From Aplysia californica (lineage: Eukaryota): a stretch of 64,000 bases of DNA. Location of the stretch: contig NW_004797331.1 in the NCBI RefSeq assembly GCF_000002075.1, forward strand, positions 1,504,770 through 1,568,769. Reading direction: 5' to 3'. Within the stretch, counting starts at the first letter, position 1; every line of letters begins with the position of its first letter. Of this stretch, positions 24,801 through 27,800 are shown one piece after another. Both the position numbers and the translations under genes were made by a program. The notes under the pieces are model-generated. The model was given only the letters and a program-made list of their open reading frames with translations. It ran no database searches and was not told the DNA's origin.

Positions 24801-27800
24801 ATCAAATATCCATTGTCCCAATTGCTCTTCCTTTTTAGTGTTTGTTACCTGTATATGACCTTATTGTGTTGCAAGTGCCTTAAAACTCTTTCTTTCTTGT
24901 CAGTCCAGGAGGGTCTTTTGCCATTCTTTTGTTTGGTCCAATTTGTATCTGACAGGAGACAGTGTAAGCTTGTGTCTGTTATTTTCAGTCTTTTCCCCAT
25001 AAGTTGTAGTGCTCTGACGTTTCGAAAGCTTTATCATTTTTGTGAAGAACGCCTTTCATTAAAGAAAAAAAAATGTGGTTGATTTGTATGTTTGCCGGCT
25101 TGCCTGTCTCCAGCACTGTATGAGTTTTGTGTGAGGGCATGCTTGTACTTATTCTGAAGAGAATGATCAGTGTTCTGGTCTTTTTTAAAAAAAAACATTT
25201 TTTCATGTTTTTCGTCTTTGTTGTCCTTTCCTGTTTTCTTGGCCCTCCCAATGACCTTTCTGTGCTGATTATTCAAGTTTACTTTAGATTAAAAACTACA
25301 GTCCAAGTTGAATCTAAGTGATGTTAATATTACAATGTCATGACTTGTTTGGAAGCTTGGGTCTAGCGTTACCGTATGTCTCAGGATGTGTTTTCAGCAT
25401 GGGGCAATGAACCTTGTCGCTTCTATTTCTCCTGTAGTGGTTGGAAGGTGCTACTCCTGCTGCGATTTCCTTTCTTTTCTTCTCTGTCGTTTCCGTCAGT
25501 CTATCTTGCTTTGTCCTTGCACTTAACTCTTTCACTACTGCGAGCTGGACTGCAAGCAGTGTTTCACGACTCGCCACTTCCTACTTCAAAACCAGTCCTA
25601 CTTTTGTAATGATGAAAACTGGGATCTCAGGCTGAAGAATGATAATTTTTAGTAACATGTTGAGGTAGTTCATTATTTCCCCTTTATTTTTCATATATGA
25701 TACATTTGCCTATTATTGAAATTGAACTCAAAATCTTTAATTTGTCTGAAAGTAGGCAGAATCAGAAAGTAGGTCACAGATAGGGCCCGGTCCAGGTGAG
25801 GAAAACCCCCTGGTAGTGAAAGAGTTAATGGCTGTCTTTGTGTCTATGTGCTTCTCCTTGTACTCAAACAAAACTCTCTCTCTCCCCCTCTCTGCTGCTC
25901 AGGGCTAACATGGACAAAGTACGCGCAGTCAAGTGCAAAGCTGAAGATGCTGTTTGCTGTGAGGTGAACACACAGGCAAACCCCGCCCACTTACACACAC
26001 TCAACTCATACACATTGTATACCGTGGTTTCAGTGTAGCTATTCCAGTTGTTTGAATGCAGCTGTGAACTGTGAACGGCATTGTTTCTGTAATGAAACAG
26101 CTCTTTTGGCTGGTGGACTTTTCTATGTTTTTGCTCTCCAATTTTGGTCTCATCTGAAATACCAGATTCAGATGTTTGGACTGAAGTTTCACTCAAAGAT
26201 ATGGGGTCAAGAAAGTGTCTTGCTCATAAAATCAAAATAAAATGTACGGAGATATAGAAATATGGGTACTGCAGTGCCTTTATTCTTTAATTTCAATCAG
26301 TAGATTTTTTTTTTCTTTACAGACAAAAATACTGTCACCTGTGCTAACTATTTCCTGTTGAAATTTTATTTTTCATAGGCACACTTTTCTTCCTCGCGGC
26401 TTCTTTCCTTTCGGTGTTGGAACGGTTTAGGTTTTCACTCAACTGATTTTTTTAAAAAAGGACGGGTAGGAGAGTGAGACATTACTACTTTCAAGATGTT
26501 AAAAAAAATTTTCTCCTGTGCTGCTGTGGGCGGGCTCCCCATCCCCATCCACACCCACCCAGGATAGATATTTTTTAAGAGATGAATGCCTCATGCCCGT
26601 TCCATCTCTGATATCTTCTCTGAACAGTTTCCTACCTCCTGTTCTCTAGTTTTGTCAGTGATGGTTGGTCTGACCATGTAGCTTCTTTGTAAAATGTCGC
26701 CTCGATGTGGTGTATGCATGACTTCTGAGTATGGATTGCTTCTTGTTAAATTTTTGTTGTGTTTTTTGCATGTTTTTGATGCCTTATGTTTTTATTTTTC
26801 CAAGATGTTGTGTTAGATTAATAAGCAGCTTTTTTTCTGTTGTGTTTCTTCATGGGCCTTTTTTTAAACATTACTTAATTTTGATTTTGGACCCACCCCC
26901 ACCCCGTTGTTTCTCAGCTACCAGGGTACTGATATCATCTAATCAGTTTTTCTCTCGCTTTTTTTCTTTCTCTATTTTTGAGTTTCTTTCATAATTTTTC
27001 TTTTCTTTTTAATTTCAAGACTGCAATGTTTGGGTATCATTACCGAGCAGATTTTCTGTAGAGTAAATTATGTATGCCCGTTTTTTTAGTACATTGTATT
27101 CTTTTTCTGTGTGTATACAGCCGAATGGCCCTAACCACTCTTGTCTATGACAATCACTCATGTACAAAAGTCCAATTTCGTGGGTGGTTGGCGGGTGCTC
27201 TGGTGTGGTTTGCTTCTTCTTTCCTATCAAACATCTATCGTCCTTATCTCCCCTTCATCTTTTTTATGTTTGTTACTCTCTTGTAACACCTCTAATCTTC
27301 TGGCGCTCATATGACCTTATGCAGTGCCGTAAAACCCTCTACTAAAACTAACTAAAAAGTCCAATTACCCCTCCCCCATTTTTTCTATATTATGACACAG
27401 TCTAAAATGTCCATTTGTCTCGGACAACACTTACTCATCTTTAATAGGTGGTCATCTTGGACAATTTCAACTGTATTACTATTTCCTGTGGATTACTGTT
27501 CTGAAATTTTTAACAGCATGGTTTTTTTTTTGTGTGTGTGTTGTTGTTTTTTTTTCCTATTCTTTGTGATTTTTTTCATCAGTTTTTTTCGTGGGCAGTG
27601 TAATTATTGATTTTTTTACCCTGCGTCACTGTGTTCGTTACTGTTTATCTACTAATGCATTTTCTGCTTGATGTTTAGTTCACTAGCTGACAGCGGTTCT
27701 ATTTGTCAAGGCCTTCTCTATAGGGTGCAGTGTATTGCCTTATTTGTAATCGGCAGCTTATCTTTATTTGTCATCTTTATTGACTTGTCGTCAGATTTTC

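Follow-up and report, generated by a model that had tools for sequence, protein, structure and literature searches.

A frameshifting cassette exon predicted to replace the C-terminus of IMP dehydrogenase in Aplysia californica and other Euthyneura

We describe a small cassette exon in intron 13 of the IMP dehydrogenase (IMPDH) gene of Aplysia californica which, when included, would shift the reading frame of the next exon and give the enzyme a different C-terminus. The gene lies in a stretch of 64,000 nucleotides that we call the window, and positions refer to it unless stated otherwise. IMPDH limits guanine nucleotide supply and sets the size of that pool, and animal IMPDHs are almost identical over their last 34 residues. 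We hold with high confidence that the architecture is that of a cassette followed by a frameshift. The best explanation as a whole, to which we assign a probability of about 0.6, combines the cassette, the frameshift, the replaced tail and a subunit of likely low activity with altered GTP feedback. Judging from sequence, the isoform appears to be real, conserved and annotated, and it is apparently undescribed. It is already in RefSeq and GenBank as automatic predictions, named "isoform Xn" or hypothetical. The literature covered by our search, outside which most subscription papers fall, holds no description of a shared origin, a dual-frame exon or a loss of the cation site.

A natural isoform without the C-terminal 34 residues that sea hares, sacoglossans and pond snails have all retained would offer a ready test of the K+ site and of the terminal strand in mixed oligomers and filaments. 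It would also extend the tuning of IMPDH by splicing beyond the vertebrate retina, and bring one more conserved case to the few dual-coding exons. As both Aplysia and Lymnaea serve as standard models in neurobiology, tissue and function are directly testable.

The gene and its cassette exon

The IMPDH gene has 15 coding exons at 9747-29049 of the forward strand (19.2 kb), and its introns are all GT-AG. The canonical gene model translates into 514 aa, which match residues 41-554 of the RefSeq Aplysia californica isoform X2 exactly and are colinear in numbering with human IMPDH1/2. This protein includes the IMPDH/GMPR barrel (PF00478, 457 bits, profile positions 1-334 of 345) and the CBS pair, and it retains Y12, R356, S477, E487, K489, E500-G502, E510 and R512. 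A protein-query search of the Aplysia genome finds one IMPDH locus. The same query gives two weaker matches with 39-41% identity on another contig, which are probably GMP reductase. The 40-aa N-terminal extension of RefSeq X1 and X2 has its exon at contig positions 1478777-1478899, which places it about 35.7 kb upstream of the window's first IMPDH exon; extensions of 26-48 aa are common among mollusc IMPDHs and parallel that of retinal IMPDH1(595). At the other end of the gene, one unbroken RNA contig covers the 3' UTR over 29028-29678, and an assembly gap (a run of N) lies at 29698-30121, inside the 3' UTR region.

Table 1. Features of the 3' half of the IMPDH gene and protein records that carry the alternative tail.
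Feature	Positions	Strand	Remarks
Exon 13, constitutive	23488..23631	+	Ends in phase 2 within Arg480; spliced contigs in two RNA runs
C-rich polypyrimidine tract and CAG acceptor	25875..25902	+	Moderate strength; 23/25 pyrimidines
61-nt internal cassette exon	25903..25963	+	Completes Arg480 and adds 20 aa; 3n+1 length shifts the frame
Weak 5' splice site GAG/gtgaac closing the cassette	25964..25969	+	Rank 18 of the 353 GTs of the intron
Read-through: 24 aa, TAG and AATAAA	25964..26241	+	Intronic in the supported model; may be a composite last exon of minor use
Three TGCATG motifs	26715..28084	+	Candidate RBFOX-type splicing enhancers
Exon 14, dual-coding	28155..28238	+	Canonical frame, residues 481-508; shifted frame, 28 residues of the alternative tail
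Exon 15 (last), coding part	29028..29049	+	Canonical YEKRLY-stop; shifted frame, one residue and then TGA 29031-29033
Tail-bearing records, Aplysia californica			XP_035824357.1, XP_012935178.2
Tail-bearing records, Physella acuta			XP_059179451.1/453.1/454.1/455.1
Tail-bearing record, Lymnaea stagnalis			CAL1548255.1
Tail-bearing record, Elysia crispata			KAK3780787.1

When exons 1-13, the segment 25903-25963, and exons 14 and 15 are joined, the product is 529 aa long and is RefSeq X3 (XP_012935178.2) letter for letter. Residues 41-569 of RefSeq X1 (XP_035824357.1, 569 aa) match the same spliced model exactly. The cassette product keeps residues 1-480 and loses 481-514, 34 residues in all; of the 49 residues in its new tail, the cassette encodes 20 and the shifted frame 29. 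The original prediction had started an exon at 25903, in phase with exon 13, and had it replace residues 481-514, and on both points it agrees with the RefSeq X1 and X3 models. The shifted frame stops at nucleotides 4-6 of the last exon 15. The size of the shift matters, as 3n+2 would bring a stop at nucleotide 6 of exon 14, while 3n+1 brings it at nucleotide 88, inside exon 15. The segment has what defines a frameshifting cassette: both splice sites, a length that is not a multiple of three, and a second frame that meets no stop before the last exon, where it ends. We reject a poison exon. Nonsense-mediated decay acts on premature stops that precede the last junction by more than about 50 nt, and this stop is in the last exon, beyond that junction.

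The splice sites of the cassette, which is single-copy in the Aplysia genome, are weak. The acceptor had been described as very strong. Its AG (25901-25902) and pyrimidine tract are there as described, but it ranks only 48th among the 195 AGs of intron 13 under a matrix derived from the 14 acceptors of this gene, which is a small training set. The tract has 7 T in 20 positions, where the true acceptors have 7-16, and 34 of the same 195 AGs open an in-phase frame of at least 45 residues. The donor scores 4.1, against 4.4-10.1 for the gene's true donors left out in turn. Such sites are consistent with regulated, minority inclusion. Downstream of the cassette, intron 13 has TGCATG at 26715, 26767 and 28079, and upstream of it none (resampling P 0.038); we take these motifs to be candidate enhancers of the RBFOX type.

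The inclusion of the cassette is predicted by the annotations of four species, all of them products of annotation pipelines. The contigs of two RNA runs, X11 and X4, identify them as spliced RNA. In each run the main contig links exons 12, 13 and 15 and fully explains the depth of exon 14; it represents the form that skips the cassette, with depth 72 in X11 and 102 in X4. Inclusion is therefore minor at best in these two runs. Neither cassette junction is spanned by a read or contig in the contig sets of X11 and X4, where contigs drop rare variants and repeats fill the matches listed. The bin with the cassette has depth 6.6 in X11 and 5.9 in X4, which is inseparable from the spill-over of a repeat ending at about 25830-25839 and which we do not count. 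The poly(A) reads of runs X13 and X14 cover the IMPDH exons at a depth below 0.5. The last 7-8 bases of the next acceptor are repeated at exon ends (23624-23631 and 25895-25902; 23051-23058 and 23480-23487), so the placement of these junctions is ambiguous in read alignment.

A second AG lies 56 nt upstream of exon 15. The extension (28972-29027) would give the canonical frame a short tail that resembles the ends of scallop X2 isoforms (SYDVRLY), and together with the cassette (61+56=117) it would bring back the YEKRLY frame. This AG is weak (rank 6 of 39, score 0.4 versus 16.1), and no contig supports it.

Conservation of the tail

Among 170 fetched IMPDH proteins that extend at least to the end of exon 13, 8 have this tail. 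The others are canonical (157), carry an unrelated tail found in Lineus (3) or are truncated (2). The eight belong to four species of Euthyneura in three lineages: Aplysia californica, Elysia crispata, Physella acuta and Lymnaea stagnalis (Table 1). The cassette peptides of the four species have 9 invariant columns, and six of six pairs reach the permutation floor (P 0.0002). The peptides are 20, 19, 19 and 18 aa long, which corresponds to exons of 61, 58, 58 and 55 nt. These lengths are all 3n+1, so the indels are in whole codons and the same frameshift is preserved. Substitutions among the peptides are largely conservative.

Exon 14 can also be followed in its second frame. At the protein level, the shifted frame is open, with a stop at the same codon, in 4/4 species with an annotated cassette. 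The probability of an open frame with that stop, under free synonymous choice, is 0.075 per lineage. As a control we use unrelated IMPDH loci, mostly non-animal, of which 27 out of 80 are scorable: the shifted frame is open in 9/27, and open with that stop in 4/27. Pairwise identity in the shifted frame is 107/174 versus 85.6 +/- 6.8 expected (P 0.002). By columns, with a split chosen after seeing the data, it is 94/132 versus 67.5 in columns 1-22 and 13/42 versus 18 in columns 23-29. When Lymnaea is dropped, the invariant-column test gives P 0.13 under the gene's codon usage. The selection tests take synonymous sites as saturated and the lineages as independent, their species were picked for having the annotated isoform, and they respond alike to protein-level selection and to conserved splicing signals. 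Taking the peptides and the frame together, we consider it likely that the cassette isoform is translated and selected as a protein.

At the level of annotation, none of the proteins listed for 9 further heterobranch species has the tail, five isoforms of Biomphalaria glabrata among them, and neither do the listed proteins of caenogastropods, bivalves, cephalopods and chitons. A profile of the four tails retrieves two sequences: the Physella representative, and an Elysia-like genomic ORF that is identical to the E. crispata shifted frame and so not an independent case. A metagenome scan with the tail profile gives 197 pattern matches, 0 of them confirmed, and the ESM Atlas matches for the tail are all below 0.9.

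Other alternative C-termini are seen outside the Euthyneura. The nemertean Lineus longissimus has a 51-aa alternative tail that starts from the same Arg480 junction and is unrelated in sequence (P 0.35-0.74), a possible convergent use of that junction as a swap point. Bivalves and octopuses have alternative tails at the exon 14/15 junction, with one short type common to oysters, mussels and clams.

Consequences for the enzyme and relation to known isoforms

The cassette isoform is without the C-terminal segment that holds E500-G501-G502, which we take to be the exact K+ ligands, and without the terminal strand. The canonical form has both. Y12, R356 and S477 fall in the part that the cassette isoform retains. 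Several sources describe what the lost segment does. The C-terminal 30 residues of IMPDH include half of the monovalent-cation site (10.64898/2026.01.19.700455), and the C-terminal segment is coupled to the catalytic Cys loop (PMC12179559). The last ten residues complete the finger domain of the neighbouring subunit, and their deletion markedly lowers the activity of Ashbya IMPDH (PMC4660370). E487 and K489 belong to the small filament interface, and E510 and R512 stabilise the GTP-compressed octamer (10.1101/2021.08.03.454821).

We propose the following mechanism. Inclusion of the cassette would set exon 14 in its second frame and yield an enzyme of 529 aa (569 aa with the N-terminal extension) that ends in the new 49-residue tail. 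The mRNA would escape nonsense-mediated decay and be translated. The protein would lack its share of the K+ site and the strand that completes the neighbour's finger domain, as well as the E487, K489, E510 and R512 of GTP-inhibited filaments and octamer compression. The barrel and CBS domains are expected to fold, in a subunit that would be poorly activated and would respond differently to GTP. Such a subunit may co-assemble with canonical subunits of the same gene and modulate mixed oligomers, so that the output of guanine nucleotides would be tuned in the cells that include the exon. We lean towards this low-activity or feedback-altered subunit as the role of the isoform. AlphaFold models of the two isoforms are of low confidence (mean pLDDT 47.8 and 56.5) and we do not use them. 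More tentatively, a splicing switch may have arisen in Euthyneura, independently of that in vertebrates, by which one of the most conserved exons of IMPDH is read in a second, selected frame. Its product would be a built-in regulatory subunit without the K+ site or the finger strand and with a new tail containing Cys and Arg, which might set GTP supply or filament behaviour in particular cells, for instance neurons.

The closest known case is in the vertebrate retina, where the IMPDH1 tail arises from a small frameshifting exon, 13b. The retinal forms are IMPDH1(546) and IMPDH1(595) (PDB 7RGI/7RGL and 7RFH; zebrafish Impdh1a_tvX1), and a retina-specific exon is described. As in the retinal forms, splicing alters the C-terminus of the same 514-aa enzyme and E510 and R512 are lost. 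Optionally there is in addition an N-terminal extension of about 40-50 residues, as in IMPDH1(595), and Aplysia X1 is likewise changed at both ends. The retinal forms swap five C-terminal residues for 37 (10.1101/2021.08.03.454821), whereas the Aplysia form swaps 34 for 49, one exon earlier. Unlike them it loses the cation-site residues together with E487 and K489, and a whole highly conserved exon is read in two frames. The Aplysia tail has no sequence similarity to the retinal tail, and the alignment of the isoform with human IMPDH1/2 stops at residue 483. The isoform would act as an IMPDH tuned by splicing, but we reject a retinal-type IMPDH1 variant, as the retinal forms keep residues up to 509 and the Aplysia form diverges from 481.

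The analogy with the retina also suggests a different function, in which the isoform would be an active GTP-resistant enzyme, convergent with IMPDH1(546/595): the tail would substitute for the lost segment, block octamer compression and raise GTP output in neurons or photoreceptors. The GTP resistance of IMPDH1(546) has been proposed to result from the loss of E510 and R512 (10.1101/2021.08.03.454821). RefSeq X1 couples the 40-aa N-extension with the new tail, as IMPDH1(595) does, and the TGCATG motifs downstream of the cassette also fit. We nevertheless find this unlikely, because the retinal forms keep residues up to 509 with the cation site, while 34 residues are gone here, and deleting just ten cripples a fungal enzyme (PMC4660370).

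We give less chance to a regulatory "off" switch, where inclusion would lead to an unstable or inert protein and the conservation would reflect splicing signals rather than protein function. The low apparent inclusion in the RNA contigs and the structural importance of the lost segment are in line with such a switch, and the synonymous sites that are conserved in exon 14 could act as splicing enhancers. It does not account for the stop in the last exon in 4/4 species, where a length of 3n+2 would bring an early stop in exon 14, nor for cassette indels in whole codons and largely conservative substitutions.

A translated subunit with a replaced tail, our preferred reading, has partial parallels in other systems. 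The mycophenolate-resistant IMPDH-B of Penicillium resembles it in that changes in the C-terminal 30 residues alter the behaviour of the enzyme (10.64898/2026.01.19.700455). In IMPDH-B, the product of a gene duplication, the tail is still homologous and carries point substitutions, and the Aplysia tail is a spliced, non-homologous replacement. INK4a/ARF, XLas/ALEX and XBP1 are cases in which one exon gives two peptides depending on upstream splicing. Compared with these, the two IMPDH products are forms of one metabolic enzyme that agree over residues 1-480, and a small conserved cassette acts as the switch.

The read-through form

The exon at 25903 was first seen as an alternative last exon, with read-through of the donor, polyadenylation near 26260 and a 524-aa protein. 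This is not how the exon ends in the models, as the donor at 25963/25964 closes it after 61 nt, is used in the RefSeq models and is implied in three other species. We regard the 524-aa form as highly improbable as the main functional product; as a minor by-product it has a modest chance of existing. The open frame is present in the sequence, with an Arg and 44 aa up to a TAG at 26036-26038. The AATAAA at 26236 is also present and is the only one in intron 13, but its density is that of chance: the 19.2-kb gene has 19, about one per kb, so one that lies 200 nt after a stop is unremarkable. Contigs of low depth lie past the acceptor in both spliced-RNA runs, at 25927-26203 (X11, depth 3.6) and 26167-26322 (X4, depth 5.3), while many other intron bins have no depth, and two further runs of similar size contain 0.40-0.51 of the words. 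Against this, X11 also has an intronic contig upstream of the acceptor (25444-25690) with a similar depth of 3.1, and the X4 contig extends 80 nt beyond the AATAAA, both as unspliced pre-mRNA would give. The downstream contigs are thus equally consistent with unspliced RNA and with a last exon, and the edge of a contig does not mark a transcript end.

The read-through peptide has no protein record and is not conserved. It is in none of 208 fetched proteins, and comparisons with the tails of the other three species give P 0.64-0.99. A search with the 44-aa peptide gives no candidate, in a weak search where true isoforms sit inside 90% clusters. The original prediction also likened this form to exons 14-15 and proposed a diverged exon duplication and a PDZ-ligand-like end. 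The likeness comes down to one local match of 7 residues (shuffle P 0.03, uncorrected). The 20 aa of the cassette do not resemble the canonical tail (P 0.14), nor its DNA exon 14 (P 0.33). The PDZ-like end sits in the unconserved 24-aa read-through part, and like the duplication it has no support beyond chance. Both ideas depend on that part. A duplicated, mutually exclusive exon finds no support in homology, and the cassette is used with exon 14, not in its place.

That the whole is an annotation artefact or splicing noise without a selected function, as predicted proteins and the missing tail in the 9 other heterobranchs might suggest, is scarcely credible and largely refuted by the conservation of the peptide, since independent annotations of four species give alignable peptides with the same intron position and frame-preserving lengths.

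A short dispersed repeat at 25780-25839, with a strong donor-like site at 25795, lies just upstream of the pyrimidine tract of the cassette. SINE-like repeat copies, which have very high depth in the RNA runs, are found at about 13920-14100, 24540-24900, 27180-27350 and 28540-28710.
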